From positions 2,942 to 66,941 of the IMG/VR virus record IMGVR_UViG_3300046467_000379: 64,000 nt of DNA, one strand, 5' to 3'. Both the position numbers and the translations under genes were made by a program. Positions 1 through 29,700 of this stretch are shown one piece after another (position 1 is the first letter of the stretch; every line of letters starts with the position of its first letter). Source of the stretch: a virus. The notes under the pieces are model-generated. The model had not been told where the DNA came from, searched no databases, and saw only the letters and a program-made list of their open reading frames with translations.

Positions 1-1157
1 GGAATTCCATCATCATCAGTCTCAGTTTCAGACACAGGAATATAACGCATCTTGTTCGTGTCAACTTCGGAAGGGAAGCCATAACGTTGTAAGAGGCGAT
101 GGTGTTCAGCTTCTCTACCCGCAATATTATTGAGAGTAGTGAATGATTTACCACTCTTTAGGGGGTCTTCGTTTTTGCTCATCCAATTTAAGAAAGAATC
201 CCCAAAGTTAATTTTACCAGTATTTTCAGACCTCATAATTACAATCTTCCTATGAACTTGTATTGGCGGTTTTTCTTCTTCCACCGCATCAAATAACTGG
301 CAGTAATCCCCAGGCATTATATCGCCTACTACTACATCACAAGTTCGTGTATCAGCATTAAAATATTTACAGTGACCACAATTAATACCCATTTGTTCTT
401 CAGGGGCAGTTGCGTCCCTATAACCACACTGGTCTTTATCTATTTTTCCTGTTTGTGGGAGTTCGGCTTTTAAGAGTTCAAACCCCGCCCCCTGGTTTAC
501 ACCCTTCTCACAAATAGTAACTTCAGCTAGTTCCATTTCATCCACTTGCATGTACGGGGTTTGGCCCTTCATCATATTCTGTACTTTAGTAGCACTACCC
601 GCAATAGAATAGCTTTTTAACAGTCCATTACTAATCTGGTCTGCAACCTTTTTAGCAATAGCAGTATCATCACGTAGTTCACAGATAAAGAAGAGTCCTC
701 CCTTCCCTACTCCTGACTTAAATATTTGACCACCCTTAGATATGTATGCAGGCAACGCCCATCCTACTTGAACATCTGAATGTAATACCATGACATTACG
801 AGTACGTTGGTTATCCATAAACTTCTTAAAGGCTTTAGATAACGCAGGGGTAGTAATAAGGTGCCCTTCCCTATCAATCATTTCGACTGAGGCAGGGCCA
901 CCAATTACCATAGGGTCAACCATGTCCATCTTTTGAATGCCTACAGCAGCTTGTTTATAAGTAGGACTGTCGGGAAAGGCTCTATATAGAGTTAAAATCT
1001 CTGCTTTAGAAGCATTTCCTGCATCATAATTATTTTTATATTCTGCTAAAGCATCTTGGATGTCTTCCATCGTGGTTTTCCCAGTTTGACCCTTCTCCAA
1101 CCAAAAAATTGAATCAGGGCTTTGAGCCACTTCAGATGTAGTAAAATATTTCGACAT
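1..1157 (-). CDS. HK97-type prohead (capsid maturation) protease fused to a HiPIP-like 4Fe-4S domain; 3'-truncated by the window edge
   Basis: Not in the ORF track. Manual translation from ATG at 1157 (TAATG overlap with the upstream stop) is open to position 1. Protease motifs: VIGGPASVEMIDREGHLI, VMVLHSDVQVG (His), LKSYSIAG (Ser), ELAEVTICEKGVNQGAGFELLKA. These are followed by KIDKDQCGYRD...NCGHCKYF..TCDVVVGDIMPGDYCQLF. Confidence 0.85.
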   Translation of the reverse strand, partial: MSKYFTTSEVAQSPDSIFWLEKGQTGKTTMEDIQDALAEYKNNYDAGNASKAEILTLYRAFPDSPTYKQAAVGIQKMDMVDPMVIGGPASVEMIDREGHLITTPALSKAFKKFMDNQRTRNVMVLHSDVQVGWALPAYISKGGQIFKSGVGKGGLFFICELRDDTAIAKKVADQISNGLLKSYSIAGSATKVQNMMKGQTPYMQVDEMELAEVTICEKGVNQGAGFELLKAELPQTGKIDKDQCGYRDATAPEEQMGINCGHCKYFNADTRTCDVVVGDIMPGDYCQLFDAVEEEKPPIQVHRKIVIMRSENTGKINFGDSFLNWMSKNEDPLKSGKSFTTLNNIAGREAEHHRLLQRYGFPSEVDTNKMRYIPVSETETDDDGI

Positions 1158-2086
1158 TAACTTGCATGGACTCCCCAAATAACACCATACACCTGGGTAC
1201 CAGCCCCAGATGCAATAGCAGATATTTTGGTTCGGGCATCTATAGGCCAATTAGTTGTTATAGATTCCCCTGTTTTCAAGAGTATGCCTGTGGAGGTTGT
1301 ACCCGCAGCGGTAGCATCTGTGTCTATAGCTATATTAACGGTCTGACTCCCGTGCCCATTCTTTAAACTAAACCCACGTACTGCTGAAATCCCTGGCCTA
1401 CGTTTCGATTCTGATAGATGGGCAGTCCCATTCCATTCGTAATTAACACCTTGGGCACCATCAACATAATCACTTAAATTACCATCTCTACGTTGTTCTA
1501 CCATAATCTTATCCACGTAAAAATCTATGTTGTGTTGTGCTACAGTAGTAATTGCTACTCTATACGTAGCAGCCACCCTTTCAAGGATTTCCCACTTGAC
1601 TGATATACGAGCAAAGGAAGTAGTCAAGCTATGAGTAGCACTGGCAGCTAACTCAACACCATCCTCATCCTGAATCACAATTTTAACATCGCCCGATGCA
1701 GAAGCCCCTCTAACTTCACACTGAGCTACGATAGATGTTCCTTCCGTATGCCCCGCAAATTTATCACTCCAATAGAATCCTTCCCCAGTTGCTGCGTTAG
1801 CAGGGTTCACTAAAAGGGAATTGCTGCCTGTGGCAGCTTGGGCACTACTTTGTGAGATTGCGGAGCCTGAAGCAGTAAATTCTGAAATTGTGGCATGTTC
1901 AATAGAGGGGTTCTTTATAAGGTTGACAGCTGGCTCTCCCCGTGCTACAGTCAATAAATCAACTGCGGTAGTACCAACAGTGATGTCAATCGGGACATAC
2001 TTAGTCCATAGATGGACACTACTTCTAGTACTGGGGTCTATTTCCCATTCAGGCCAGTTCTCTGGAAAATGTTCTGAAGTTGGCAT
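1157..2086 (-). CDS. Putative virion structural protein with a carbohydrate-binding-module-like (CBM4/9-type) domain
   Basis: NLIKNPSIE...ATGSNSLLV...FYVDKIMVEQ...DYVDG pattern typical of phage CBM-like domains; located in the head module. Confidence 0.55.
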   Translation of the reverse strand: MPTSEHFPENWPEWEIDPSTRSSVHLWTKYVPIDITVGTTAVDLLTVARGEPAVNLIKNPSIEHATISEFTASGSAISQSSAQAATGSNSLLVNPANAATGEGFYWSDKFAGHTEGTSIVAQCEVRGASASGDVKIVIQDEDGVELAASATHSLTTSFARISVKWEILERVAATYRVAITTVAQHNIDFYVDKIMVEQRRDGNLSDYVDGAQGVNYEWNGTAHLSESKRRPGISAVRGFSLKNGHGSQTVNIAIDTDATAAGTTSTGILLKTGESITTNWPIDARTKISAIASGAGTQVYGVIWGVHAS

Positions 2087-2770: not shown

Positions 2771-4135
2771 TTAGACGCTTAGGTCACAGATTTTAGCCTG
2801 AACAAAGAAGTTCTTGCAGCGCAACTCACCAAGAGTGTACAGCAAGCCCCTGACAACCAAGCTGTTAGCAGCGAAGTAGTCACGGTTTTCGATGTATTGG
2901 GTAGGCTGGGCAATTGACATCTCAAGATAGTCAGTGTCCAGTACGTAAACGTTACTACCCAGGATAGCACCAGCAGAGCTTACGCTCTTAGGCACATCGG
3001 CATCAGGTAGGATGGGGATACCCATGTAGGTAGCCAAAACCAATCCAGTACGGGTACCAGGGAATGTTCGCTCAGAGCCAACACCAACCTGATATTCTTC
3101 CTGACCCATGTAACGTTGCTGTGAATTCAGCAGACGTTCCAGTTTGAAGTACTGGTCATGACCCATGAGGATGAGTTTTGGCTCACCGCCATTTTCCCGA
3201 ATCTTCTGGATACAAGTATCAATCAGATTAAGGGAGAGGTCACGGCCTACACCAGCGTTGTGGCTGACGTTAGCAGCAGCATTCCAACCACCAGCAGTCC
3301 GTCCAGCTATCGTAAGGTCAAAAGCCCTAGCGTTAGCAGCCAATCCACCAGAAGCAGCCCCGTCTTCAGCTACGATATCATCCAAGCTGGTGAACCCAGC
3401 GCGGGAATATACGTAAGCCAAGTCACCAGCAGCCCAGGCAGGGCTAGAGGTGTCAACAGTTACAGTGCCAGCACTATGAGCGGTACTAGAAGCACCACCA
3501 ACAGTGACACCACCAGTTAGGTCATGAGCAGAACCAGAACCGTCGTAACGGGCAAACTCATCACCTAGATGGAAGTTATTAGCAATAGCAGCACTGTTGA
3601 AAACAACAGTGGTACCGCTACCACCAGTGGCCCTAGCAGCAGCCAAGGACAACAATTCAAAGTTGACCTCTTTCATGTGGTCTAGCTGGGCGTTTTCATT
3701 CTCCAACGCCAGCACGTCACCGACACCACCTTCTAGTTGGGCAGTGAACACTGACTTGACCGATGCACCGAAGGTTGTAGCAACAATTCGGGGCAAGCTG
3801 GAAACCGTCTGGATAGCAGAAATATCTACTGTCGGGAGGTTACCAGTTTCTAGGATGGGCGAACTGCGGTTTGCACCACGGTCAGACCGAATCCTCCAAC
3901 CAGCTGTGTTACCCCACACAGTACGTGGGATAGCATTAAAAAACCTAGTTTGGTTGTTTAGAGCTTGCCAAACTTTCCGTCCATACGTGGTATTAAAAAT
4001 ACCAGTAGCGGTATCAACCGTGAACGGAGTTCCGACACCAGCACCAGCTTTCTTCATGAAGCCAGGGCCGAATACACTCTGATACAACCCTCGTTGTGAC
4101 TGAGCAATATACTCAGAAAGGGATGGATTAGCCAT
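2771..4135 (-). CDS. Major capsid protein (HK97 fold) with an inserted beta-rich domain
   Basis: 454 aa after the scaffold; YGRKVWQALN, LSLNLIDTCIQKIRENGGEPKLILM, YMGIPILPD, VYVLDTDYL motifs. Confidence 0.88.
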   Translation of the reverse strand: MANPSLSEYIAQSQRGLYQSVFGPGFMKKAGAGVGTPFTVDTATGIFNTTYGRKVWQALNNQTRFFNAIPRTVWGNTAGWRIRSDRGANRSSPILETGNLPTVDISAIQTVSSLPRIVATTFGASVKSVFTAQLEGGVGDVLALENENAQLDHMKEVNFELLSLAAARATGGSGTTVVFNSAAIANNFHLGDEFARYDGSGSAHDLTGGVTVGGASSTAHSAGTVTVDTSSPAWAAGDLAYVYSRAGFTSLDDIVAEDGAASGGLAANARAFDLTIAGRTAGGWNAAANVSHNAGVGRDLSLNLIDTCIQKIRENGGEPKLILMGHDQYFKLERLLNSQQRYMGQEEYQVGVGSERTFPGTRTGLVLATYMGIPILPDADVPKSVSSAGAILGSNVYVLDTDYLEMSIAQPTQYIENRDYFAANSLVVRGLLYTLGELRCKNFFVQAKICDLSV

Positions 4136-4164
4136 AAAAAATCTCCTTACGCTTTGTTTTTAAA

Positions 4165-5010
4165 TTAACCTATGAGTTCGCGGGGAACGCCGTCCGTCTC
4201 ACCACTTTCAATAGTTTCCTGCAACCGACGCAAGTCCTGATAGGACATCTGCATCATCTGGTCAACAGTATCTCCACCCGCAGCTTCCTTCTGAATAGGT
4301 GCAGTGCCATCTGTACCAATGGTATCCTCATAGCGGATAACGGTAGGACGGGTAAGAGAAGTCTCTTCACGGAAGCCCATCTTTCGCAGACGGCCCTCAG
4401 TTTCAGTTTGAATGGCTTTCTGCATACTGTTTGCACCACTCAAAGCAGACTTCAACTCATTAATCTGTTTCTGCATATTTTCTATTACTGGATACTGTTC
4501 CGCGTTCTCCATTCCATAGCCATATCCTTCTTCCAATTCTTTATCCTTGTCTTCTTCTGTATCCTCAGGTTCACCATTCTCCTCGTTCAAATCCTCGTCT
4601 TCCTCTGTATACATCGCTTCTTCCTTCAACAGGTTAAGCTGTTTTTGCATGGCTTGAATTGTAGCCTGTTGGTCAGTCAACTTATTAACTACAGTGACTG
4701 CCTTTTCAGAGTCATCATGCCCCTTTGTCACAGAGCCAGCCTTGCGTTCTTTCGCAGAGCCTTCTTTGTCCATATCAGGCATACCCTGGTCTGCTTTAAT
4801 CAAACCATACACTTCCCCAGCTACGGCCTTAATGATTTCTTGCTTCTCAAAAGCATCTTCCTCATTCTCAGCCAATTCCATATCATACTCTTCCTGTTTA
4901 CTTATACGGTAGTCCATCTTGTGCAAGACCTCCGCAACAGCAGCAAGAGCGAGATTAGAGCCTTCTATCTGTTTCTCCAACCTCTCCACAATGTCATTGT
5001 CTTGTGCCAT
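4165..5010 (-). CDS. Capsid scaffolding protein
   Basis: Acidic coiled-coil protein directly upstream of the MCP; SD GGAGG 6 nt before ATG at 5010. Confidence 0.7.
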   Translation of the reverse strand: MAQDNDIVERLEKQIEGSNLALAAVAEVLHKMDYRISKQEEYDMELAENEEDAFEKQEIIKAVAGEVYGLIKADQGMPDMDKEGSAKERKAGSVTKGHDDSEKAVTVVNKLTDQQATIQAMQKQLNLLKEEAMYTEEDEDLNEENGEPEDTEEDKDKELEEGYGYGMENAEQYPVIENMQKQINELKSALSGANSMQKAIQTETEGRLRKMGFREETSLTRPTVIRYEDTIGTDGTAPIQKEAAGGDTVDQMMQMSYQDLRRLQETIESGETDGVPRELIG

Positions 5011-5102
5011 GTGCATCCTCCTTCCTAGTTCAGAAAGTTGGTCTAAGCCACCTCCGACTTCCCGACAAATAAATAGATATAGTACGACGGATTTCGTACT
5101 TA

Positions 5103-5115
5103 ATATATTATACTA
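5103..5115 (-). promoter_or_regulatory. Putative late promoter (-10-only AGTATAATATA) for the scaffold-capsid operon
   Basis: One copy of a motif found about 10 times upstream of minus-strand gene starts. Confidence 0.55.
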
Positions 5116-5156
5116 TGAATTCCGAATTATTTCGTATTTTTATAGTATAATTAGTG

Positions 5157-5375
5157 TCAGTTTTCAATGTCTTCTGGAACGTCCCCTTCTACTGTAAGCT
5201 TTAGAATTTCATTCCTAAAGTCATAGAGAGGAACTTGTATCAATTTTTTAACTTTTTCACATTGAGTCCCTTCAGGCATAGCAGTCTCAATTAAATCTAA
5301 AACTTTACCTACCATACGTGAATGTCTTGCGATAACATACTCTTGTAAAGGGGTTACTTTACTCACATCTACCAT
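5157..5375 (-). CDS. Hypothetical protein (72 aa)
   Basis: ORF with SD AGGAG, in the tightly packed operon. Confidence 0.65.
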   Translation of the reverse strand: MVDVSKVTPLQEYVIARHSRMVGKVLDLIETAMPEGTQCEKVKKLIQVPLYDFRNEILKLTVEGDVPEDIEN

Positions 5376-7297: not shown

Positions 7298-7424
7298 ACT
7301 CTCTCCTTACCGTTAGAACTATAATTTTCCCGCACATCAAACAATTTAAGTCATTGTCCTCATTGACATACATATTGCCTGCACATTTAGGACACATACT
7401 ATCAGAAATACTAGGCATAGTCAA
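7101..7424 (-). CDS. Small zinc-ribbon protein
   Basis: CPKC...CLMCG; the C-terminal 65 codons overlap the next gene. Confidence 0.55.
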   Translation of the reverse strand: MTMPSISDSMCPKCAGNMYVNEDNDLNCLMCGKIIVLTVRREYDSRTGKIRNNKKEARGGDVDGDITVDRGGIRDSDSQDNRPTLVRQRGFQRRRGRPRRTLGVDRG

Positions 7425-10044
7425 CCTTCAAAAGGGCATTCAGAATCGGAGCGTCATCACCAGCTTCTTCTAATGCCTTTCTCATAGCCTCTAATTTGGC
7501 TACTTTCCCTGTTTCAGGCACCCAATATGTGGATGCATCCTCATCTGAAACCTCAGGGTCATCCGTATCTTGGTCACCCCCTCTATGCAGTGCGTCAGTC
7601 TGCCCATAATCTGACGTATATGCCATTTGCAGCCCCAAACCAGCAACTGGCTTTGAACCCTCTGGTTCAGTGTTGCTCTCTTGTTTACGTCTTCGTTGCA
7701 TATCATTCTCCTTAGTTACAGCATCTTTATGGGGAGCCTCATTAGGATTATCTTTAGTTCGTTCTACGAAAAGGGCTTGTGGGTGTGGCCCAGTTGCTGC
7801 TTGGCTATTTTGGTCTGGGGTATTGTTTCCAGCCCCCTCAGTACTGGCTTTTTGCACATAAGTCTTGTTATGCCAGCCAGGTTTCCGTTCCGTTGTACCG
7901 TTACTAACAGAAGGGTCTTCCTCTTGAGGATATGGTGCTGCAATAGCTGCTTCCATTCCTCCTGCGAGGCCCATATTAATGTGGGGTTCGTTCTTTTCAG
8001 CAACTTCCATCGCATCCTCTAATTTACGGCTTGTCTTCTTATGGTTGAGAGTATCCTCTGTCACATCTTTCTCCCAACTAAGTCTTTGATACGGGGTAAT
8101 ATTTTGGTTATATGCATCCGCTGTGGCGGGGGCACCTGACATATCCTCATCAAGTCCTGGGGCAAGACCCTTTTTACCACCTTTAGACATATTAGGAGAA
8201 CCATCGTATAAAAATTGAACGAGCCTATCTACCCCACTCTTCTTGCTTTTACCCATCAATTTCTCTCGTTTCTTATCTTGCCTACGTTTGTTTTTAAGAT
8301 GCCTTTTCTTTGTACCACGTCCCCCAAAGGTTGGTGTAAAGACTCCTGCATTTGTAGAAGTAAAGACTGTACCTGAGAGGCCATTAAAAGCACCGCCATC
8401 TCCTCCACCCTCACCTTCTTTACGAATAAACTTCATTAGCTTACTTACAGAGAAATACCGTTGTATATCAGGGTCAGTTTCAAAAGAACCTGTAGGTTTG
8501 TAGCTAGGAGATTCAAAGGCTACTTTATCAAACATCCGCTGTACACCCTCTTGATGTTGAGATGGTACTTTTGAGAGCATTGACTCCGTATGGTCTGTTA
8601 AGAAGTCATGTATGTTCATTTCTTTTCTAGTTGTATCTAAATATTCTTGGCTGGGCCTTTGACCTTTGGGCGCATTACGAGGAGGTCTGTTAGGTCTAGC
8701 TCTTCCTAAAGGAAAAGCATCGTCATAATCCATATCACGAACAGCAGCCCCATGTCTCTGCAACATATCAGAACGATGTACTCCTTTTAAACCATCCGCA
8801 TGTTGGTTAGCAGTCATAGGAACATCTCTATGAATTTTATCTAAATAATTATAAGCATGGTAATGTACACTAGGTACTGGGCGTCCCTCCCCCTTATTCT
8901 CTAAAAAGAGGGGAGCCTTGTCATGCCCAACAGGAAGAAATAAGTCAGGATGTGTATCTTCCCATTCAGTGTGGGGCCGATTCTTATCGACTTGACGTTG
9001 TATTTCATCCCCCATATGCCTACGGAAACCTTCTATACCATCATCTTCTTCAGCTTTTATGAATTTCATTAGTTTGCTTACAGCCTTTTCCTCATCCCCA
9101 AATAAATCTGGGAATCGCTGTTTAAAAGCATTTTTGGCCTTCGGCTGGGGGGAAACGGGTGTCTCTGCTGAAGGGTTTGCTGACGGGTTTGCAGAGGGTT
9201 CTTCAAGCTCACCCCCCATCGTTCTATATGTTTCACGCCTCCCTCTCATAGAAGGGTAGCGATATTCTGCCGTATCAGAATGGTGTCCTGATTCCATTGC
9301 CGCATCCCCTCTCCTTGCTCGATTCTCACGCCCATAACGTTCTTTAGGCCAAGCCTCCCCTCTGTCATAACCCTTAAAATCTGAGTGGGGGCCAGGTTGA
9401 GGGTCTGTTGGAAATTGGGGCTTCATTTCTCCCCGAATATTATCTCCCTCTCCTTCAGGGGGTAAGGGAGCCGAATCAGCAAAAGAACGAGTCATAGATG
9501 CAGGCCATTGCAATGGATTATACCCTAAACTATCAGGATTAAAGGCAGGACTTACCTGCCGAAGGCGGCGATGTAAATCATCTGCCAATCCCATAGCATT
9601 ATGGGACATATCAGTCCTCATATTAGCCCTAAGATGGTTACGATGAAAGCCTTCTAAAGTCATATTATCATTTAGACCAGCCCCCCTCTCTTCTTGAGGC
9701 TCTTCTATTTTATATTGAATAGAATCAGGATGGTATGAATACTCTTCCCCATGATTTAATATGTTATGTACAGTGCCTATGGCATGATGCCCCTCCATGT
9801 GAGTTCCCATGTCAATCCCGTCAGGATGTTCTCGTAGCAACTGTATATATGCATGAGCAGCATGAAGAGGACTACTATCCCCAGGATAATCATAGGGCTG
9901 CATTTTATTAGCTATGGTCTGAATCCGCTGTGCGTCCTTACTCCCAGATTCAGGAAGCCCTGCGGATTGATTCATATTAAACCCTTTAGGGTAAGACTCT
10001 TCTGAGTCAGGGAAACCAATTTTCTCAATGTCTTTATCGGGCAT
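7411..10044 (-). CDS. Large low-complexity protein after the portal (candidate head-internal/minor head protein)
   Basis: About 877 aa from ATG 10044 (SD GAGG); hydrophilic; repeated VSKLMKFI(K/R) motif. Confidence 0.65.
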   Translation of the reverse strand: MPDKDIEKIGFPDSEESYPKGFNMNQSAGLPESGSKDAQRIQTIANKMQPYDYPGDSSPLHAAHAYIQLLREHPDGIDMGTHMEGHHAIGTVHNILNHGEEYSYHPDSIQYKIEEPQEERGAGLNDNMTLEGFHRNHLRANMRTDMSHNAMGLADDLHRRLRQVSPAFNPDSLGYNPLQWPASMTRSFADSAPLPPEGEGDNIRGEMKPQFPTDPQPGPHSDFKGYDRGEAWPKERYGRENRARRGDAAMESGHHSDTAEYRYPSMRGRRETYRTMGGELEEPSANPSANPSAETPVSPQPKAKNAFKQRFPDLFGDEEKAVSKLMKFIKAEEDDGIEGFRRHMGDEIQRQVDKNRPHTEWEDTHPDLFLPVGHDKAPLFLENKGEGRPVPSVHYHAYNYLDKIHRDVPMTANQHADGLKGVHRSDMLQRHGAAVRDMDYDDAFPLGRARPNRPPRNAPKGQRPSQEYLDTTRKEMNIHDFLTDHTESMLSKVPSQHQEGVQRMFDKVAFESPSYKPTGSFETDPDIQRYFSVSKLMKFIRKEGEGGGDGGAFNGLSGTVFTSTNAGVFTPTFGGRGTKKRHLKNKRRQDKKREKLMGKSKKSGVDRLVQFLYDGSPNMSKGGKKGLAPGLDEDMSGAPATADAYNQNITPYQRLSWEKDVTEDTLNHKKTSRKLEDAMEVAEKNEPHINMGLAGGMEAAIAAPYPQEEDPSVSNGTTERKPGWHNKTYVQKASTEGAGNNTPDQNSQAATGPHPQALFVERTKDNPNEAPHKDAVTKENDMQRRRKQESNTEPEGSKPVAGLGLQMAYTSDYGQTDALHRGGDQDTDDPEVSDEDASTYWVPETGKVAKLEAMRKALEEAGDDAPILNALLKVDYA

Positions 10045-12082
10045 TTTCATCCTCTTCCTCATAGGGGTTATATTCCCTAGATTCCGAATCACTAGTAGTA
10101 TTATATTTGATTCCTTCGGTATGCGGGGTTTTATACACTGGCCCCATTCCGAAGGAAGCCTTTTCAACATGAGTCACACCTGTGGAATGTAAGTCTGCCA
10201 CAAAGTCTATCCCATCTTGACTAAACCACATTTGTTTACCATCTTCAGATACCTGTTTAATGATAGGCGTTTGGTATCCTTTAGACATAAGCCCCTCAAC
10301 CCAATTCTTAGGAGGGTTTAAATTAGTTGGGTCATCCTCAGATTTCCGATTATCTGCATATTTATCCAACTCCTCAGTAGTCCTCTCCTTCCTGGGCAGC
10401 GAGTTATATGTATAGTCTTTATTCTGACCGCCTTTCAACGGTGCGAAAGCCATATTTTGCATGGGCATGGGGGGCATTGGTTGTGCTTCTGCGGATTCCC
10501 CTCCACCTGGCGCAGCCCCAGTGCGTCCAGGGGCAGGATTAACGCCCTCAGGAGGAGCGGGGGGTTGTCCAGGCTGTTGCCCCGATTGAGCTTGCTGTTC
10601 CATCATTTGTTGCTGTTGTTGCATCTGTTCCATCTGTTGTTTCTGCTGGTCTATTGCCATATCCATCTGTTCACCCTGTTTTTCCATCATGTTAACAGGC
10701 TTACCAAATATCATGAACTCAGCATCTTCCACAGGAACACCGTCATCCTTCAGACGTATCTCAAAGCCCAATGCAATGAATTGATTTGCAATTTGAGCCT
10801 TTTGTTGAGAGAAGCTGATACGAGTTGCTTCAGCCTTCTCTTCAGGATTCGGTAGTTTCAAGCCCCAATCAGTTATTCCAAACGCTTCCAAAATCTGCGG
10901 GAACACCTTTTCATGGAACAATCTTTGGTCACCCTCAACCACCCTACTCATAACAACTAATTGCTGAGTTTGGGTAGAGAGGCCACCAAAGGCTTCAGGC
11001 GCACCCTGCCAAGCAGGAGTTACGCCCCACATAGCTGCAATTCGTTCCCGTATTTCGCTTCTAACAGGCAAATAGTCCATCTCATTTAGTGTATGGAACA
11101 AACGTACCATATCCACTCTTCCTCTGTTATTACGGGAGGACACAGCCACCATTGGTATATAGTTAGGGTCAAGACGTGTTTGTGCTGCAATCTGCTGCCT
11201 TTCCCTACGCAGAGACTCAGGGTCATCTGTAAAGACCATCATCATAGATGCTGGCATTTTCCTCTCAAAGAAATATCTATATAGGTTTTTATCCATTCCT
11301 ATTAAAGTAAGAGCTTTTTCAAAGATAGTTAGAATTGGACTCCATCCGTATGTCTCACTAGGAGAAAATTTAGATAGATGGATAATTTCCCCATCCAACA
11401 TGAAGATATGTTGATTCCGATGATAATACTTATACATTACAGGTTGTAATTTAATGTCACAATCATCTTGGGGGCAGTCTCCAGGGTCTTCTTTCACTTC
11501 ATCTCTATGGATTGGGCATAAGAAGTGGGCGTTTTTAGGCAACCCTGCGGCATCTAGGTCAAATTCTACTAAAGCTGGATTCAATCGTCTGAGTTCATTT
11601 ACTTTAGATTTAATGCTACCGTCCTCATCCTTTTTATATTCTTTAACTATGTATAAAAAGGAGTCATCAATCGCATTTAAGTCAAAATGAAACTGCCTCA
11701 AGACTTCTTCCAATGATTGGTCAAAAATATTACAATCATCCATAAATTTCATGAGACGTTTCTGTTGTTCAGGGTCTGGATTTTCTACTAGAGGCACCCA
11801 TTCTATGCCTCTCCTAAATACTTCACCTGTTATGTGCTGTAACGGGGAACGTACTTCTTCAATGGAGTAGGCCAACATTTGCAAGTCCATCACAAGCTGC
11901 TGACGATACGCCATTTGATGACGTACCCACGTATTCACTACATGGTCTAGACCTATAGTAGGGGCACGGCCCGTTTCTCCATTCCCAGACTTCATTAAAT
12001 CTAAAAAGTTAATTTGTTCATTAAGATTAATAACAGTTTGGGCTAGTTTAGGCACCTCAGGTAGATAATCCTGTAGTCTCAT
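10034..12082 (-). CDS. Portal protein with an HMBD-like metal-binding insert and a Q/P-rich C-terminus
   Basis: ELRRLNP, EIIHLSKFSPSETYGWSPI, YFFERKMP, RERIAAMWGVTP portal motifs; lies between terminase and capsid genes. Confidence 0.88.
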   Translation of the reverse strand: MRLQDYLPEVPKLAQTVINLNEQINFLDLMKSGNGETGRAPTIGLDHVVNTWVRHQMAYRQQLVMDLQMLAYSIEEVRSPLQHITGEVFRRGIEWVPLVENPDPEQQKRLMKFMDDCNIFDQSLEEVLRQFHFDLNAIDDSFLYIVKEYKKDEDGSIKSKVNELRRLNPALVEFDLDAAGLPKNAHFLCPIHRDEVKEDPGDCPQDDCDIKLQPVMYKYYHRNQHIFMLDGEIIHLSKFSPSETYGWSPILTIFEKALTLIGMDKNLYRYFFERKMPASMMMVFTDDPESLRRERQQIAAQTRLDPNYIPMVAVSSRNNRGRVDMVRLFHTLNEMDYLPVRSEIRERIAAMWGVTPAWQGAPEAFGGLSTQTQQLVVMSRVVEGDQRLFHEKVFPQILEAFGITDWGLKLPNPEEKAEATRISFSQQKAQIANQFIALGFEIRLKDDGVPVEDAEFMIFGKPVNMMEKQGEQMDMAIDQQKQQMEQMQQQQQMMEQQAQSGQQPGQPPAPPEGVNPAPGRTGAAPGGGESAEAQPMPPMPMQNMAFAPLKGGQNKDYTYNSLPRKERTTEELDKYADNRKSEDDPTNLNPPKNWVEGLMSKGYQTPIIKQVSEDGKQMWFSQDGIDFVADLHSTGVTHVEKASFGMGPVYKTPHTEGIKYNTTSDSESREYNPYEEEDENAR

Positions 12083-12556: not shown

Positions 12557-14407
12557 TTACGAAATCTTACACGCACTCCACCCACACACTTTACAAGTCT
12601 CACAACCACTTTCTTGTACAATCAACGGAGACTCACAATCACACTTAGCATCTTCCCCTTCTAAATGCCCCGTTACCAACACCTCTTTCTCCCTACTACC
12701 ATTACGATATACGGTAATTCCTTTGCATCCCGTCTCCCAAGCTGTCATATAAGCTTCAAACACATCTTCTAAGGTAGCCTCAGACGCAAAATTAATGGTT
12801 TTAGAGATGCCAGAATCCACATATTGTTGGAAACGGGCTTGCATTAAAACATGGTCTTCAGGAGAAATGTCTTGGGCTGTTACATATACTTCTTTAACCC
12901 AATCTGGAACATCGTCACGGTCTTTTAAAGAACCACCAGAGGCCAAATAAAGCATAAGGTCTTCAGAATAGAAATTATTTTCTTTCGCATCTTTTTTAAA
13001 CTCTTCGTTAATATAGAATAGGGTCTGACCCTCCAATATATTTTGTTTACGCCACGCCAAAGCAAAGATAGGTTCAATTCCACTAGCGCACCCCGCAATC
13101 ATAGAAATAGTGCCCGTAGGGGCTACCGTCAAACGACAAGCGTTCCTATAATTTTCTTGAATCTTATAACTACTTTGTTCCCACGCGGGGAAAGTTCCTC
13201 TAAGCGAACCTAATTCTAATGATTTAACGCTTGCCATATGATTAACAAATCGCATAACCTCGTCTCCAACTATCCGTGCCTCTTCAGAGTTATACGGAAT
13301 TCGCAACTTAATCAATAAGTCAGCAAAGCCCATAACACCTAATCCAATCTTACGAGTGGCCTTTGTCATCTTTTCAATTTCAGGAATACTATAATCATTT
13401 GCATCAATAACATTATCAAGGAAATGTACTGCATTACGGATTACGTGTTGAAGCCTATCCCAATCAATCATGTTTTCCCAGCCAACCTCAGACTGGTCAA
13501 GTCCAGTGGGACGAACAAACTTAGCGAGATTAATTGACCCCAGGTTACAACTCTCATACCCTAATAGGGGCTGTTCTCCACAAGGATTAGTTGCAATTAT
13601 ATCCCCGTATTCCTCACCAACTTTATTATCTTCATTCATTCTATCGAGGAAGACCATCCCAGGTTCTCCATTACGCCATGCACCCTGAACAATCTTTAAG
13701 AAGACTTCTCTTGCATTTAAAACTGAGACGGGGAATCCTGTTTTAGGGTCATTTAATGTATAGTCCTGGCCCAGTTTAACTGACTTCATGAAGTGGGTGT
13801 CAACAGCAACAGAAATATTAAAATTATGTATATCTCCCTCTGTTCTCTTACACTCAATAAAAGAAAGGATGTCGGGGTGTCTCACACTCAGAACAGCCAT
13901 GTTAGCTCCGTCACGCTTGCCCCCCTGAGTTATCATACTGGACACCCTAGAGAGCGTTTTAAGCACCTCTATGGGGCCACAGGCAACACCATGAGTAGAT
14001 TGAATCTTAGCCCCCTTGGGTCTAATTTTAGATAGCGCAAAACCTGTGCCGCCACCAAATTTCTGCACCATAGCGGCATCCGTAGCAGACTTCATGATTT
14101 GTTCCATACTATCTTCCAATGGCAAAACGAAACAAGCTGACAAAGTGCCTTGAGCAGTGCCTGCATTCATTAGTGTGGGGGAATTAGGCAGAAATTCCAG
14201 ACTCCATAGCATCTCAAAGAAATTTTGTTCTAAGAGTGTTATTTCATTTGGAAGGACTTCATAATAGCTATCTACCTCAGCTATTGCTTTTGCCACCCTC
14301 CAAAATAGTTCTGGTGAATCTTCTGTTGGGTTCCCTTCCATATCTTTAAGAAAATATCGGTGTGCCAAAATGGTTTCTGCCTGTTCAGAAATGTGTGTGT
14401 CTATCAA
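12557..14407 (-). CDS. nrdJ: Class II (adenosylcobalamin-dependent) ribonucleotide reductase
   Basis: [37 protein letters not shown]-terminal [15 protein letters not shown]; no small subunit gene nearby; probable TTG start at 14407. Confidence 0.93.
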
Positions 14408-14411
14408 TCTC

Positions 14412-16091
14412 CTACCCCCTATGTCCACAATATATACAAAGTTTCCGTTCTGGTACCCAAAATTCTGGTTTGCAAATAATCTCATCACAAAGTGGATTTG
14501 GACAATCTGCCATCGTTAAATCTGGGTTCATTGTCCTAGTATAATCCATCTTGACACCTCCTGGCAACGCCATTTCCTTAACTGGGTCAAGTTCCGGTTC
14601 TAAAAAGGCCGGTGGTTCCCCTGTTTCCTTCATCTCTGCTGGGTTTTCTGGGTCAAGGAACCCTTGCAAATCACCTAGATTGGTGAATCCAAATTGCCCT
14701 GTTTCCCAGGAAGCTAGTAAAGCCATGCCAATAGAAAAGAATGCGTCTCCATGCCCCATAGGAGTTTCAGGAGCTTTTAATTCATTACTAACTGACAAGA
14801 TTTGCTGCTTCTGCCTTTCATCTTTTAGAAGTTTAAGGTTCCCTGAAAGCACATATTGTTCAAAAATCTGTGCCATTGTATTTTTAGATTTAACAGTAAA
14901 GGTTAAGGGGTGCCACCGATAATCCAGCCCTCTATCCTCTAATTCTCCCCTAGTATTATCTACGTATCCCTTATCTATATCAAAATTCTCCGCTACTTCA
15001 TTTAAGTATTCTATTTGGTCAGAGTAGTTCCACCCATCTAACCAAGATTGGTGAATTTGGCGGCATATACTCCCAACCCTCTCAAATATAACTAGGTGAG
15101 AAGGGTGGCGTTTTTTACCAACGTCAAACCCCGCAAAAATAAAGGAGCCTTCTTGCTTCCTATATTTACGGGTTGTGGGGAACTCCCGCAACGTCTCATC
15201 TTCGCAACTGAGGATATCTTCCTCATTAAAATAGGCTTCAGTAGCAAAGTGAGGAACCAACAAAAACTCAGACGCAAAGGATTTAGGCCTAGCTTTTTGT
15301 TGTTGCAGTAGCCAATCCTCATTGTACAACTCAGGCATTAGCACCCTACGCCCAGGAACGGGGTCAAGGGCTGGCAATACTCTAGACATGAAACGTTCAT
15401 CCTTCTGGAGGTTGGCAAGTAAGTCCCCAGGCATCATAGGAGTTCCTAACACTATGACTGGCACACCCTTCAAAGGAATAAACAAAGACTCCGTTAAGAA
15501 ATGGTCTTCAACCTTTGTTACCTGTCCAATATTCAAAGGGTTTTCAGGGTCACGAAGAATGTCATCTGCAATTAAAGCACCGTTAACATGCATACCCCGT
15601 TTAAATGAAAAAAGACCCCCATGCATGATGTTCATAGGCTTATTATTAATCATATATCTAGCTGAGAAGTCAGCTTTGGGAGTACGGTTATCCATCCACT
15701 CCACTAATTGGGGGTTCCTAGAGATGGCTTTGTTAATCTCAGAGATGTGGTAACGAGCCATCCCATCACTATACGATAAATACAGTACAGAGCAGTCTCT
15801 GGGGGCTGTTAAGAGCCTCCACACACTAAAGGCGTGGCCTAAGAGGGTACTTTTAAAATGGAACCGTGGGAGGACGGCACAATAGTTCAACCCTGCTTGC
15901 ATACATTTTTCAATGTCTTCAGCTACTATGCCAACATGCCAAGCCTTAAAATATTCAGGGTTATCAAAACTTTGTGACCATATATTAACAAGAAATTCAT
16001 GGAAGGAGCCTACCTTGGCTTTTCCAGAAGTTAATAATCCTGCTGCTAATCTATCAAATGCATCATTAAAGGTAGTTATCTCTTGTGTCAT
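14412..16091 (-). CDS. terL: Terminase large subunit
   Basis: Walker-A-like PRFHFKST, Walker B LIADD, coupling motif GTP, nuclease GFDVG and HGDAFFS; Cys-rich C-terminus. Confidence 0.9.
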   Translation of the reverse strand: MTQEITTFNDAFDRLAAGLLTSGKAKVGSFHEFLVNIWSQSFDNPEYFKAWHVGIVAEDIEKCMQAGLNYCAVLPRFHFKSTLLGHAFSVWRLLTAPRDCSVLYLSYSDGMARYHISEINKAISRNPQLVEWMDNRTPKADFSARYMINNKPMNIMHGGLFSFKRGMHVNGALIADDILRDPENPLNIGQVTKVEDHFLTESLFIPLKGVPVIVLGTPMMPGDLLANLQKDERFMSRVLPALDPVPGRRVLMPELYNEDWLLQQQKARPKSFASEFLLVPHFATEAYFNEEDILSCEDETLREFPTTRKYRKQEGSFIFAGFDVGKKRHPSHLVIFERVGSICRQIHQSWLDGWNYSDQIEYLNEVAENFDIDKGYVDNTRGELEDRGLDYRWHPLTFTVKSKNTMAQIFEQYVLSGNLKLLKDERQKQQILSVSNELKAPETPMGHGDAFFSIGMALLASWETGQFGFTNLGDLQGFLDPENPAEMKETGEPPAFLEPELDPVKEMALPGGVKMDYTRTMNPDLTMADCPNPLCDEIICKPEFWVPERKLCIYCGHRG

Positions 16092-20807: not shown

Positions 20808-22787
20808 CTAATCCCAATCTATAGCTTCTTCTATTGTAACAGGTTTGGGGATATCAGTCAAGTATTTCTTGGTAGCCCAGGAAGGGTCACACACCTCAAC
20901 ATCAACCTTGAGCGGAATCCCCAAACTATTCTCTTCTAGTAATTTCTGTATTTCTGATGGTACGCTGTGTATTTCATCATCATGTATTTCACAAATGATT
21001 TCATCGTGGACTTGCAACAAGATACGACTCTGTTTGGTTTTAAGGTACTCATGGGTTCTAATCATCCTTTCATTTAAAATATCAGCACTGGTGCCCTGTA
21101 CTAAATAATTGACACCTTTATAGGCTAAATCCTCTGGTATTACATACTTTCTGCCATACCGATTCTTAACCCAACCCCGTGTACTCACGGTACGGGAAAC
21201 TTTATCTATGAAGGACTTTGAACCTGATATACCAGCAAAGTACTTCTTTTTGTATTGAAACGCCTCTTTTTCAGAGACATTTAATTGATTAGCAAGCCTT
21301 GCCTTCCCTATACCATAGATAACTCCAAACGTAATGTTCTTCGCCATCTGCCTATAAAACTTATATTCACTACTACTCTCTTCTACCCCAAAAGCAATTT
21401 TTGCGGCTTCACCATGAAAGTCTACATCTTCTCTTGCCAAGAGTGCATCAACGTCTTCATTGTGTAAATAACTCAGGAAGACCCGAACTTCCATCTGAGA
21501 ATAATCAAATGACACTAACCTGTACCCTTTTCTAGGAATAAACATTCTACGCATTGCTACCTGTTCTCTATCCTCAGGGTCAAAGGATTCGTCCCCCACA
21601 AAGCCCCAGGTGTCCAACACATGGTTACTAAGGTCTAAGACTGCACTAGTACCTTTGGCGGCTATAATGGCGTTTATACGGCCTCTCACGGTATTCCGTT
21701 CATCCTCTGTAAGTTCCCTATCCAGCAACTTGAAATGGGTTCTGGGGATGTTCTGGAGATTGGGTTCTTTAGAAGACAACCTACCTGTCAAAGTTCCCCA
21801 ATTACAGTACGAAGTATGCATTACAGGAGCATCTAAATACGGTTCCAGATAAGTAGATTTCAGTTTCTCTAATGCCCTATATTGTCTAATGTATCCTGCT
21901 AAGGGGTCATCTATCTGAACTAGTGCCAATTCACTCCAAGACTCTTTCCCCTTGGGAGTCTGAATAGATGACCTAATGCCCCTCTCATTCAGTAGTTCCC
22001 CCACTTGTTGAGAACTGTTTATATTAAATTCTTTATCTGCTAAATCATAAATTTTGGCTTCGACTTCATTTCGACGTTGGTCAATTCTTGTAATAGCATC
22101 TTGAACATATGCCGTGTCAATAGCAATGCCTTCATTCTCTAGAGAATATAGAACCTTAGTTAAATCAAATTCTAGATTCATAACATCAACTTGGTTACTT
22201 TCTACAATTTGTTTGAGGGTTTTAACGTAGAGCTTATGCGTCCAATATACATCTTGTTCACAATATGGCCCCAGTAGTTCAGGTGGGGATAAGGAGAAGT
22301 CTTTATGCCACTTATTAGAACGTAACTCCTTCTTCGTATCCTTATCGTAGGAAGCCGCCGCTTCCCCATATATCCTTTGAATTGTATGGGTTAGCCCCAA
22401 TTCTTTTACAGAAGCTGGTTCAGTTAAGCGAACCATGACAATGACATCAGCAAAAGTCACTTCCTCAGGCGGTTTATATCCTGCTTTCTCTAGAAACTTG
22501 AGGTCAAACTTAATGTTATACCCCACCAACATATCTGTCATCTCCAAGCATCTCATTAACCTACGCTGATGCGTTGGGTCTAGATTCTTTCCCTGCTGAT
22601 GCCTGAAGGGAAAATAATAGGTTTCGTCTTTATATCCAAGTCCCACCCCACATAGCTGATTACGTCCAAAGGCATCTAAGCCGTTTGTTTCCACATCTAC
22701 TACAAGGTGGCTTGACTCACTGTGGGCCAAATCTTTTTCAATTTGGCCCACGTATTCGTTAAATTTAGATGTGGTGTCAACCAACAT
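20808..22787 (-). CDS. polA: Family A DNA polymerase with 3'-5' exonuclease
   Basis: ExoI DVETNG, ExoII YNIKFD, ExoIII YCEQD; motif A DYSQMEVR, motif B RQMAKNITFGVIYG (Phe at the 762-equivalent), motif C LQVHDE. Confidence 0.95.
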   Translation of the reverse strand: MLVDTTSKFNEYVGQIEKDLAHSESSHLVVDVETNGLDAFGRNQLCGVGLGYKDETYYFPFRHQQGKNLDPTHQRRLMRCLEMTDMLVGYNIKFDLKFLEKAGYKPPEEVTFADVIVMVRLTEPASVKELGLTHTIQRIYGEAAASYDKDTKKELRSNKWHKDFSLSPPELLGPYCEQDVYWTHKLYVKTLKQIVESNQVDVMNLEFDLTKVLYSLENEGIAIDTAYVQDAITRIDQRRNEVEAKIYDLADKEFNINSSQQVGELLNERGIRSSIQTPKGKESWSELALVQIDDPLAGYIRQYRALEKLKSTYLEPYLDAPVMHTSYCNWGTLTGRLSSKEPNLQNIPRTHFKLLDRELTEDERNTVRGRINAIIAAKGTSAVLDLSNHVLDTWGFVGDESFDPEDREQVAMRRMFIPRKGYRLVSFDYSQMEVRVFLSYLHNEDVDALLAREDVDFHGEAAKIAFGVEESSSEYKFYRQMAKNITFGVIYGIGKARLANQLNVSEKEAFQYKKKYFAGISGSKSFIDKVSRTVSTRGWVKNRYGRKYVIPEDLAYKGVNYLVQGTSADILNERMIRTHEYLKTKQSRILLQVHDEIICEIHDDEIHSVPSEIQKLLEENSLGIPLKVDVEVCDPSWATKKYLTDIPKPVTIEEAIDWD

Positions 22788-26363: not shown

Positions 26364-26735
26364 CTAACCATCTTTACGTCCCTTATAATAACATGGTTGA
26401 CTACAGTATATCTTATTATACTTCCTTCTATGCCTCTGTGTCACCTCTGAACGCTTCAAATAAAAGTCTACATGACAAAATGAACAAGTAACTTTTATAC
26501 GATAGTAATTAAAGTGACAGGTGCCACTACAAATATTAACGCGAAGGCCGACAGGTTCGTTACATTGTTTGCACCTATTGAATTTCTTCTTCTTAGGAAC
26601 ACTAGTATTTAAATCTTCCTTCCTAAGAATTTTATGGACGTATTGTTTAGATACGCCCACTTCCTTTCCTATTTCCACAGAGTTCATTAATGGGTTCTCT
26701 GTACGAAGTTGTATTATTTGTTCTTTGCTAGACAT
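26364..26735 (-). CDS. HTH plus tandem Cys-rich (TRASH-like) zinc-finger regulator
   Basis: NSVEIGKEVGVSKQYVHKIL; CKQC, CSGTC, CSFC, YCSQPC. Confidence 0.7.
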   Translation of the reverse strand: MSSKEQIIQLRTENPLMNSVEIGKEVGVSKQYVHKILRKEDLNTSVPKKKKFNRCKQCNEPVGLRVNICSGTCHFNYYRIKVTCSFCHVDFYLKRSEVTQRHRRKYNKIYCSQPCYYKGRKDG

Positions 26736-29700
26736 TTCCCTCCAATACTTCTATTCTAGCCTTTAATTCTTTAACGGCCCCGATTAATGGTGCAATCAAC
26801 TGAGTATAACTTAAACCTCTGGGATTGGGTACTTCAGCTTCAGTCCCATCAGGGTCTATTACTTGAGTAACAGTTTCTGTATCAGGCAAATCAATTAAAT
26901 TAAACTTAGTTTTATCTATATTCAATCCTGTTAAGGCTTCTTCTACTTCTTGGGCCACTAAGCCATAATTAATTACGTCTATAGTCTCTCCAGCATTATC
27001 TAACCGTTTATAACTTCTTGGACGTAAGCTATCAATAAAGGCTAATGAATTAGCGTTTGTTAAATCTTGAATATCTGTTTTAATTCTAGAATCTGACCCC
27101 TCTGTTAGTGTATTACAGTATACGACTGCCCATTTATAGCTACTGCTTCCTGAATTATAGAAGTTATTAATATACGGAATTACGCTAGTTCGCATCTCAA
27201 TTGTATTACCGCTAATATCGTTTATTCCAGTTAGGGTAACTAAACCAGCAGTAATATCTAAACTAGAGCTATGGGTATGCCCACCGCTGCCGTGCGTACC
27301 GTGGTTATCTGGGTCTTGCCACGTTGCTTGACCAGCAGAACCACTATACACTAAGAGTTGATTAGCTGACCCATTAATAGGAAGGTGATAACTTCCATTA
27401 GCAACAAGATGGTCAATGGTTTGGGTGTGGGTTCCAGAGGAGGTGTTCTGGTCACCTGATAAATGTGTTCCCGCTGTAATATTAACACCTTCAATATCCC
27501 CAACGTGTTCATCTGTAATAGTAATAGTTTTAGTTGACCCCGTACCTGAAGCAGTTACACCATTACCTACGAAGTTAATTGTTGTAGCTGCTGTCGCTAA
27601 AGAGGAGCCTTCCTCTTGTACAGTTAAACTACTACCATTAGCAGCTACATAAGCTATAATAGCTGCCTCTGTCGCTAGTTTAGTGTGTACACCAGAACCT
27701 GAACTACTAATAGTTTGCAAAAAAGCATTGGGGCCAGTAATAGAGCCAACACTATCAGTGAAGCCAGCATCAGCACTACTTATAACTAGCTTAGTTGATA
27801 GTAGCTCTATATTTACCAGACTCATCAAAGGACTATTTGCGGCAGTAGCCCCTGAACCTGATGCTACAAGAATTAACGCCCGTCCGGTGGCGATTCCTGC
27901 TTGATTACCACGATATAGGGTGGTATAACTCTCCTCCCCACTAGAGGGGTTATGTCGCCAGTTAATACTTCTAGCTGTGGTTTCGGCTGCTGCTCCGAAA
28001 GCAATTCCATCTGCACCTAAAACAATGCTGCTGCTAGTCCCTGCTACAGTAATGGTACCATCTATTGCTAATGTACTAGCAGAGTTATCCCAAGCAAATT
28101 TATCTCCTAAGGAAAAATCTCCAGCTGTACCAGCATGACTGTTCCCATCACTTCCATCTACCCCCCTAACAAAAAATGGGGTGTCATCATCGTTAAAATT
28201 ACCTGTTCCCATATGAAAGGTAGAGGCAGTTACTGCTAACCCACCTATTGTTCCAGATTCAGCACCAGCTACTAATCGTATATTTGCTGTAGTATCTGAA
28301 TTTAACCCACCATTACTATTAATCTCAGAAGCATAAGTAAAGTTTAACTGACTGACGGAAAGGGTACCATCTTGTACTTTAGCGGCATTAATAGCATCAT
28401 CAGCTATTTTAGCTCTCTCTACCGCTAAATCCTCTAACAACTCCGCTTTAATTGAAGCTACGTCTATGATTGCCCCAGCTTCATTTTTCAGTGGGATTGT
28501 TCCATTTACTTCAGTATGATTAAGCCAAATGTTGGGCTGTAAGCGAATGGTAGGCTTCGTTATTCCCGCAGTATTAGTAGCGATTACATGGAGTATGGGT
28601 ATATTATCGGAGTCTCTTGTATACGTCCCAACACGTTTTGTATATAGATGATAGGTTCCTTCTGCACCTAGATTTTCTCCTTCGGGGTCTAAATATACAA
28701 TATAATGTTGGTTAGCTACCATGTTAGCACCCAGGCCATACGTACCAACAGCAGTAGACCCTGCGGCAAATTTGAAGACTCTACCGTCAACTAACCTCAC
28801 GGTACCCGCACTCCATGTAGCTTTCAATGCTGTCTGTGCTTCTGAGCCATTGGGTATAGTGACAACCACCTCACCAAAAAGGCTTCCTAGAGCCTGTGGT
28901 TGGAGAATTTGAGTTTTTTCTCTTACGCCTAAAGCTGTTTGGGCAATTTGGGATATTAACCCGCTAACTCTATGTCCCCCACCTAATCTACTTTCATTCT
29001 TACCAATAGAAGACACCCTACTTTCAGGGATTGGGTCTTCATTATATGCAATCTTAGATATAATGTGTTCCCCATAAACCTCTGCTATAACGTTATCCAG
29101 AAAGACTTCAGTTCCTGCCCGAAGCGGAACTATAATTCGTATGGGGTCACCCACAGCAAAGCTTCGCACTACGCCAGCGTCGGATGAAGAGGAAGCATCT
29201 AAAGTAGTCCCTGCACTATTCCGCACTTGTAAATTAATTGCAAATGATGTGTTACTCTCCATGTCTCCAATATAACCATAAACATCTAGACCACCATGCT
29301 GTGCAATGGCAGCATGATTGGCAGTCATTTTATGTACAAGCATTCCTTCTCGTACCCCAAAGTTTGTGATGTTTACAGCTGCTGACCCATTTATATTTTT
29401 AACCGTTATGTCTTGTCCAGCACCAGATGCCGTTGCTGTGGCTATAGAATGTACCAAACCATCCCACCAATAATAGGGGGCTTTAGAAAAAGAATATGAG
29501 CCTTGACGTAATCCCGTGGTAGCTTGAGCTAATCTAGAAGCAATCTCTGTCCGTAAATCTGTGGGGTCTTCATCATTCATCAGCCCCATATCTATAACTT
29601 TATGCGCTCCCCATACTTTGGAGGGGCGTCCTTCATGGGCTTCTGTTAGCCCCACTGCAAGATTTAACCTACATTTTGCCCCACTGACAGCCCCCCTTAA

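Follow-up and report, generated by a model that had tools for sequence, protein, structure and literature searches.

Prohead proteases are built into procapsids, and arrangements that associate a protease with a scaffold exist in phages, such as C/Nu3 of lambda and gpO of P2. Cellular high-potential iron-sulfur proteins (HiPIPs) are bacterial electron carriers that the twin-arginine translocation (Tat) pathway exports to the periplasm; their fold is known for its oxygen tolerance and their clusters are known for stability, not for sensing. In 2013, Duda, Oh and Hendrix reportedly found that the C-terminal part of the HK97 protease directs encapsidation. Here, we analyzed a stretch of 64,000 nucleotides (hereafter called the window) that covers bases 2942-66941 of the 66,941-base viral contig IMGVR_UViG_3300046467_000379 (IMG/VR; estimated completeness of 86%) and whose left end carries the gene of a prohead protease that includes, just after its core, a small domain with four cysteines. 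Our results suggest that this marine phage head protease carries a HiPIP-related cassette, which would point to an iron-sulfur module packed inside the head.

In lambda gpL and its tail-tip relatives, four conserved cysteines bind a [4Fe-4S] cluster whose function is described as unknown (PMC10721106), Mu-F polymorphic toxins have an N-terminal head-morphogenesis module that bears variable downstream modules (PMC5576092), head-packaged ejection proteins processed by a protease are known, for example the E proteins of SPN3US (PMC7411985), and some encapsulin operons, of the IMEF type, include a Bfd-type 2Fe-2S ferredoxin (PMC6668986). Our full-text search, which did not extend to subscription journals and supplementary files, found no description of a HiPIP-type domain in phages or prohead proteases.

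Location and Conservation of the Four-Cysteine Domain

The open reading frame (ORF) encoding the protease lies on the minus strand, starts with an ATG at positions 1157-1155 of the window and is cut by the left edge of the window, as indicated in a preliminary description made from the letters of the window; read from the full contig, it encodes a protein of 1167 amino acids (P0002). The peptide quoted in this description, from KIDKDQCGYRDA to DYCQLF, corresponds to residues 238-289 of the ORF (446..291 on the minus strand), so that the interval that had been given, 288-447, agrees within 3 nucleotides with our reading. The approximately 875 amino acids of the ORF located beyond the domain had been overlooked; the domain is therefore internal and not C-terminal.

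Homologues are numerous (177 at E ≤ 0.001, and 78 related viral loci), and a C-x2-C-x9-C-x12-C block is found at the equivalent place in 55 of the 120 homologues listed. The domain is present in 97 of the 163 stored proteins, as 106 distinct copies, and 102 of these copies keep all four cysteines. Alignment A1 gathers 25 sequences (the domain of the window, 19 domains found at the same position in related viral loci and five small stand-alone proteins) and extends down to 32% identity. Its only invariant columns are the four cysteines, one valine and one glycine. A fifth cysteine, C244 (in DQCGY), is not conserved and is replaced by V, A or S in relatives. Among the 106 copies, the tyrosine of the upstream G-Y motif is Y in 92%, the two positions that follow C-x2-C are Y/F in 90% and F/Y in 98%, the position before the last cysteine is Y/W in 67%, and the third residue after it is F/W/Y in 95%. 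In HiPIPs, aromatic residues at such positions pack on the cluster and shield it.

A pattern of cysteines arisen by chance in a linker, or an artefact due to a wrongly joined ORF, could be suspected only because the domain of the window lacks a direct Pfam match. This explanation, to which we give next to no probability, is refuted by the strict conservation of the pattern in these homologues and in 55 of the 78 loci, which are carried by independent contigs, and by a search of a 75-amino-acid segment against 1.84 billion representative proteins, which gave 53 matches (E ≤ 0.001), 24 of them at E ≤ 1e-10.

Relationship with High-Potential Iron-Sulfur Proteins

Searching the sequences of the Protein Data Bank (PDB) with the A1 profile retrieved PioC (6xyv_A) as the best row (E 7.2e-7, 32.1 bits), with an alignment that covers the full domain, from the G-Y motif through all four cysteines. 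The next HiPIPs were 3h31_A (E 4.6e-4) and 1isu_A (E 0.016), and HiPIP chains amount to 10 of the 17 rows. Profile A3, which was restricted to the own clade of the window (15 sequences) in order to exclude a result driven by a few HiPIP-like members, again placed PioC first (E 2.1e-4, the next row being at 0.077), and none of the four A3 members that were scanned passes the Pfam HIPIP model. This model (PF01355, gathering score of 22 bits) matches 11 of the 25 members of A1 at E ≤ 10, the best at 1.3e-7. When ten orthologous domains were scanned singly, three passed the cut-off (32.3 bits for L039, 28.4 for L025 and 27.0 for L030), four scored between 15.7 and 18.8 bits and three had no match. 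The three that passed occupy the same position in proteases approximately 60% identical to that of the window. Furthermore, the nearest clusters of the ESM-Atlas are made of small proteins, 77-100% of them viral, and 11% of the members of one cluster carry HIPIP. Taken together, these data make membership of the domain in the HiPIP superfamily very likely, with PioC as its nearest solved relative; on the sequence evidence, the copy of the window is too diverged for the Pfam model. The HiPIP kinship proposed in the preliminary description is thus supported by the two profiles and the three orthologues, and is not recovered from the sequence of the window taken alone.

The four cysteines, which include a C-x2-C pair, would also be compatible with a structural metal knuckle devoid of any iron-sulfur (Fe-S) cluster, in which they would coordinate Zn or, once outside the cell, be joined in disulfides; the domain would then be a stable spacer or interaction module derived from a HiPIP. 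Weak zinc-finger matches of single members (zf-MIZ, E 0.021; zf-primase, E 1) and the two beta-hairpins seen in poor AlphaFold2 models go in this direction. However, the second pair of cysteines is C-x12-C and not C-x2-C, the significant matches are HiPIPs and not zinc fingers, and the aromatic positions mentioned above are strongly conserved. We consider such a knuckle unlikely, and the domain probably binds an Fe-S cluster.

The Protease Core

Residues 152-231 match Peptidase_S78 (PF04586) in Pfam, with 24.4 bits for a cut-off of 21 (E 3.5e-5), and the protein matches phrog_23555, "head maturation protease", at 5.4e-14. In a tblastn search of 50,697 phage records, the protease matched only eight records, all from haloarchaeal tailed viruses (approximately 30% identity, E 9e-15); six of them are annotated as prohead or head maturation proteases (HVTV-1 and HCTV viruses) and two as hypothetical proteins. 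Foldseek, run on a poor model of residues 1-400, found the gp21 protease of T4 as a weak match (rank 20, E 0.23). The protease core recognized in the preliminary description is confirmed by the Pfam, PHROG and haloarchaeal matches.

The core terminates in F-E-L-L-K (residues 226-230), and an alignment of 55 relatives shows no variation at F226, L229 and K230. In the same alignment, S182 and S184 are invariant, and H99, H126 and S127 nearly so; they are candidate catalytic positions. The preliminary description had proposed a release of the domain at this place (LLK|A). The invariance of F-x-x-L-K is compatible with cleavage and does not prove it, and the motif may instead be a structural element; no conserved site matching it was found after the domain in the aligned relatives.

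Many relatives (L034, L036, L048, L056, L061, L070, L074 and L075) show a short S/T-C-x-D-G-S-C-L motif, which contains two cysteines, between the core and the site of the cassette. It occurs independently of the presence of the cassette and is missing from the protein of the window, and some relatives add C-x-C-x-C runs.

Presence and Loss of the Cassette

The A1 hidden Markov model (HMM) was run over the six-frame ORFs of the 78 related viral loci. In the 55 loci where it detected the domain, the latter invariably lies within the protease ORF, at the equivalent position. Among the 23 other loci, one (L054) has a contig end that precedes the site, and no separate HiPIP-like gene was found in these 23 loci, most of whose contigs are short. 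When aligned to residues 1-400, relatives that lack the cassette show a gap as long as the domain and retain the downstream conserved region, called here module 3. In L021, which belongs to the own clade of the window and is 76% identical to its protein in the 400-amino-acid alignment, and in L061, which lies beside L036, exactly the cassette has been lost, in frame. On a maximum-likelihood tree of the protease core (53 rows; L077 and L078 were omitted as too short), the pattern of presence and absence requires at least six changes, at least four of which are forced by well-supported branches. The domain is therefore a modular cassette of approximately 60-65 amino acids, strongly constrained where it is present and losable without breaking the protease gene.

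Other Proteins Carrying the Domain

The survey of architectures rests on the 53 matches mentioned above: 25 have an S78 core, 27 do not, and one, P0140, was rejected as a false positive (a low-complexity repeat protein in which the HMM detects no domain). Among those devoid of S78 core, the domain is N-terminal to an XkdF-type protease (Peptidase_S78_2) in P0154 and P0156, and N-terminal to a Phage_Mu_F head protein in P0160. It lies beside an HNH-like module in P0139 and P0146, the latter having also PAP2; both share nothing but the domain with P0002. P0152 carries two copies after a low-molecular-weight phosphatase. Stand-alone or tandem domain proteins span 61-190 amino acids: nine proteins of 132-188 amino acids have two copies each and seven proteins of 61-145 amino acids have one. 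No signal-like N-terminus was seen, on inspection by eye, in the stand-alone viral relatives P0148, P0151 and P0155.

The search of homologues with the A1 profile yielded only five proteins in the near-length class, and profile A4 gave no match among the 8000 candidates scored in the longer-length class. P0158 and P0151, used as queries, found no related loci among the viral contigs. The tblastn search of the domain and of P0158 against the 50,697 phage records (INPHARED) gave no match, and thus no cultured phage of this collection has a close copy.

Five proteins (P0137, P0138, P0142, P0158 and P0159) have two HiPIP-like domains, the second of which has a C-C pair at the position of the last ligand; they also have in common a C-terminal D-I-E-D-L motif.

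These distributions bear on the proposal, made in the preliminary description, of a redox- or iron-responsive switch, in which the presence or the oxidation state of the cluster would gate the protease and tie maturation to the iron or redox status of the host. Such a switch would fit the direct junction of the domain with the end of the protease core, beside the invariant F-x-x-L-K, and the presence of the domain in two protease families (S78, and the XkdF type of P0154 and P0156). However, the close relatives L021 and L061 have lost the cassette alone and kept the rest, the protease tree requires at least six changes, the domain is found as well on a Mu-F head protein, in proteins devoid of protease and by itself, and HiPIP clusters are known for stability rather than for sensing. 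The evidence leans against the switch, because of these clean losses and of the occurrence of the domain on non-protease head proteins and alone, and we give it a low probability.

A Module Possibly Carried into the Head

Accessory cargo is favored over an essential switch because the domain is shared by two protease families and a Mu-F head protein, exists alone and has been repeatedly and cleanly lost. Since the protease goes into the procapsid, the cassette can be read as a cargo of the interior of the head. The preliminary description had also mentioned head cargo; this idea fits the distribution better than the switch, encapsidation itself being a step that we infer. As a whole, the best explanation, which we hold to be slightly better than an even bet, is a HiPIP-type module devoid of signal and carried into the procapsid as an accessory cargo. 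Taken on its own, the packaging of the domain as accessory cargo of the head is a possibility that we place a little short of even.

Several observations weigh against this explanation. At the level of the protein, the domain lacks a signal peptide and is internal to a cytoplasmic polyprotein (residues 235-292 of 1167), and serine replaces the fourth ligand in two of the 106 copies. At the level of the kinship, the own domain of the window (67-amino-acid segment) has no Pfam HIPIP match at E ≤ 10, the same model finds nothing in the six-frame translation of the whole contig, and a phmmer search of the PDB sequences with the window segment alone gave no HiPIP, its only rows being chance matches to P2X (best E 0.16). 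The seven other rows among the 17 of the A1 search are cysteine-rich heads of P2X receptors (best E 0.005); we take them as due to chance and, since they reach E 0.005, weak rows are unreliable in such profile searches. The structural models also bring no help: AlphaFold2 gave a poor model of the domain alone from 25 sequences (two beta-hairpins; predicted local distance difference test (pLDDT) of 57) and, with 55 sequences, a model of residues 1-400 whose pLDDT averaged 57 and fell below 50 within the domain. For neither of these poor models did Foldseek find a match at E ≤ 0.001 in the PDB, and thus no HiPIP; VIA ("pdb_via_wide"), run on the poor domain model, returned one row, TarS (Z 2.0), and no HiPIP. 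We read this outcome as a failure of the models and not as evidence on the fold. Finally, the link to other head proteins is provided by P0154, P0156 and P0160 only (three of the 27 non-S78 matches), and the repeated clean loss shows that the domain is dispensable.

The mechanism that we infer, from cluster binding through encapsidation and cleavage to a role in the particle, would proceed as follows. C260, C263, C273 and C286 would most likely hold a single [4Fe-4S] cluster, around which the domain would fold; the conserved aromatic residues Y246, Y265/F266, Y285 and F289 would shield this cluster, which the machinery of the host would insert in the cytoplasm. Tethered to a protease that is assembled into procapsids, the cassette would be taken inside with it, and this same enzyme might then release it. 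Owing to the oxygen tolerance of the HiPIP fold, the module would be well suited to particles that have to persist in oxic seawater. More speculatively, the HiPIP-type [4Fe-4S] module, redox-active and stable to oxygen, could be widespread in uncultured marine tailed phages, packed by means of S78, XkdF-type or Mu-F carriers, freed by the protease and delivered with the DNA to the envelope or cytoplasm of the host, where it would act early in infection as electron carrier, redox effector or iron supply. In that case, virions would represent a stock of protein-bound marine iron that has so far gone uncounted. We regard this extended scenario as improbable.

If true, the presence of HiPIP-family domains, devoid of signal peptide, on phage head-assembly proteins would put this cofactor domain in a new context, one that spans two protease families, a Mu-F protein and small viral proteins. 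Tailed-phage particles, which already have Fe-S proteins in the tail tip (those related to lambda gpL), would thereby have a second type of Fe-S protein. Given how frequent the carriers are in marine viral contigs, the finding bears on the amount of iron held by virions, a question raised by the "Ferrojan Horse" hypothesis (bioRxiv 10.1101/674382).

Anatomy of the Protein, Gene Context and Host

Downstream of the cassette, module 3 occurs in relatives with and without the cassette, and the Pfam scan of residues 293-400 gave no family match. It is followed by a basic tail (residues 411-1120, G and R 13% each; isoelectric point of 10.1, net charge of +27), a region of approximately 750 amino acids that is probably disordered. 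A G-x-[FL]-[RG]-G-F motif is found three times in this tail, at residues 725, 761 and 822 (residues 411-1167 correspond to L002:595-2865, minus strand). The length of the tail ranges from approximately 200 to approximately 1000 amino acids across relatives, whose full-length proteins, from many independent contigs, have 650-1300 amino acids. The final 25 residues or so form a motif common to close relatives, and distant relatives have other short amphipathic ends.

All the long ORFs of the window are on the minus strand (Table 1). The protease ORF comes last in a head block whose other genes, on the same strand, encode the large subunit of terminase, the portal, an exonuclease, the 283-amino-acid protein and the major capsid protein. 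The genes of terminase, portal, capsid protein and protease are all contained in 16 kb of this strand. At positions 1155-1159, TAATG combines the TAA stop of the 309-amino-acid ORF and the ATG of the protease, which overlap by one base; this suggests translational coupling.

Table 1. Position of the features discussed in the text (coordinates of the window).
Feature	Position	Strand	Evidence or remark
Part in the window (residues 1-385) of the 1167-amino-acid head polyprotein	1..1157	minus	Whole ORF is L002:595-4098, 2347 nucleotides past the left edge
S78 (HK97-type) prohead serine protease core, residues 1-232	462..1157	minus	Pfam, PHROG and haloarchaeal virus matches
HiPIP-like four-cysteine cassette, residues 235-292	282..455	minus	Profile matches to PioC and other HiPIP chains; orthologues pass Pfam HIPIP; deleted in L021 and L061
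Codon of Cys260, first predicted cluster ligand	378..380	minus	Cys in 106/106 distinct copies
Codon of Cys263, second predicted ligand (C-G-H-C)	369..371	minus	Cys in 106/106 copies
Codon of Cys273, third predicted ligand	339..341	minus	Cys in 105/106; the exception is a fragment end
Codon of Cys286, fourth predicted ligand (D-Y-C-x-x-F)	300..302	minus	Cys in 102/106; 2 fragment ends, 2 Ser
Start of the conserved downstream module 3, residues ~295-400	3..275	minus	Alignment of relatives
309-amino-acid ORF directly upstream of the protease ORF	1157..2086	minus	No PHROG or Pfam match
Major capsid protein	2771..4135	minus	phrog_24667, 3.3e-20; Pfam SU10_MCP, 5.9e-11
Acidic protein of 283 amino acids whose gene immediately precedes that of the capsid protein; candidate scaffold, judged solely from where it lies and from its composition	4165..5016	minus	No PHROG or Pfam match
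919-amino-acid ORF	7411-10170	minus	No Pfam family
Portal protein	10034..12082	minus	phrog_18178, 1.1e-40
Ribonucleotide reductase large subunit, between terminase and portal	12557-14488		phrog_84, 8.1e-141
1593-amino-acid ORF, likely tail fibre	26728-31509	minus	Ends in Peptidase_S74 intramolecular chaperone
2006-amino-acid ORF	54323-60343	minus	No Pfam family

The capsid protein and the protease found matches, in the 50,697 phage records, only in haloarchaeal tailed viruses (HVTV-1 and HCTV-1/5/16) and in one Methanofastidiosa virus, with approximately 30% identity. The DNA polymerase (20808-22787) belongs to family A and resembles the enzymes of bacterial phages. The origin of the virus may be mosaic. 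A magrovirus or another archaeal virus was considered, given the haloarchaeal-like head genes, and was not adopted, the polymerase being of family A and the sole cellular match being Dehalococcoidia. This match, the only one in 185,579 species genomes, is L081, a 5.8-kb contig of a Dehalococcoidia metagenome-assembled genome, which encodes at 4102-5313 a protease with a HiPIP-like domain, at 84% identity to its counterpart in the window. The match hints weakly at a Chloroflexota host; it could also stem from the way in which a short viral contig was binned. The sources of the homologues include mesopelagic and deep-chlorophyll-maximum samples of Tara Oceans.

Comparison with Known Systems

Encapsulins (PMC6668986) resemble the present system in that iron or Fe-S proteins accompany a shell of the HK97 fold. 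However, encapsulins are cellular compartments that acquire their cargo by targeting peptides, whereas the shell is here a virus head, the tether is covalent and the predicted Fe-S type is another one. Compared with the Mu-F and ejection proteins cited above, the likeness lies in the HiPIP-like domain borne by the Mu-F protein P0160 and found with HNH-like, PAP2 and phosphatase modules; the differences are that the Pfam and PHROG scans detected no toxin domain in P0002, that the carrier is a protease and that ejection is conjectural. Lambda gpL (PMC10721106) is also a tailed-phage virion protein with four conserved cysteines and an Fe-S cluster, but it is located in the tail tip and not in the head, it is not a HiPIP, and its cluster is described as oxygen-sensitive.

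Like HK97-type prohead proteases, the protein of the window has an N-terminal S78 core, is encoded in a head gene block and bears a long C-terminal extension with a short conserved end motif. It differs from them by a predicted domain of metal-cluster type, by its basic low-complexity tail of approximately 750 amino acids and by the location of its gene downstream, and not upstream, of the capsid gene. Compared with cellular HiPIPs, the phage domain has neither Tat signal nor periplasmic destination, is internal to a head polyprotein and has short loops (x9 and x12). Nevertheless, it shares with HiPIPs, and with PioC (6xyv) in particular, a size of approximately 55 amino acids, the C-x2-C...C...C order, the upstream G-Y, the aromatic pair after C-x2-C, the V-x-G after the third cysteine, and the aromatic residues located before the last cysteine and three residues after it.

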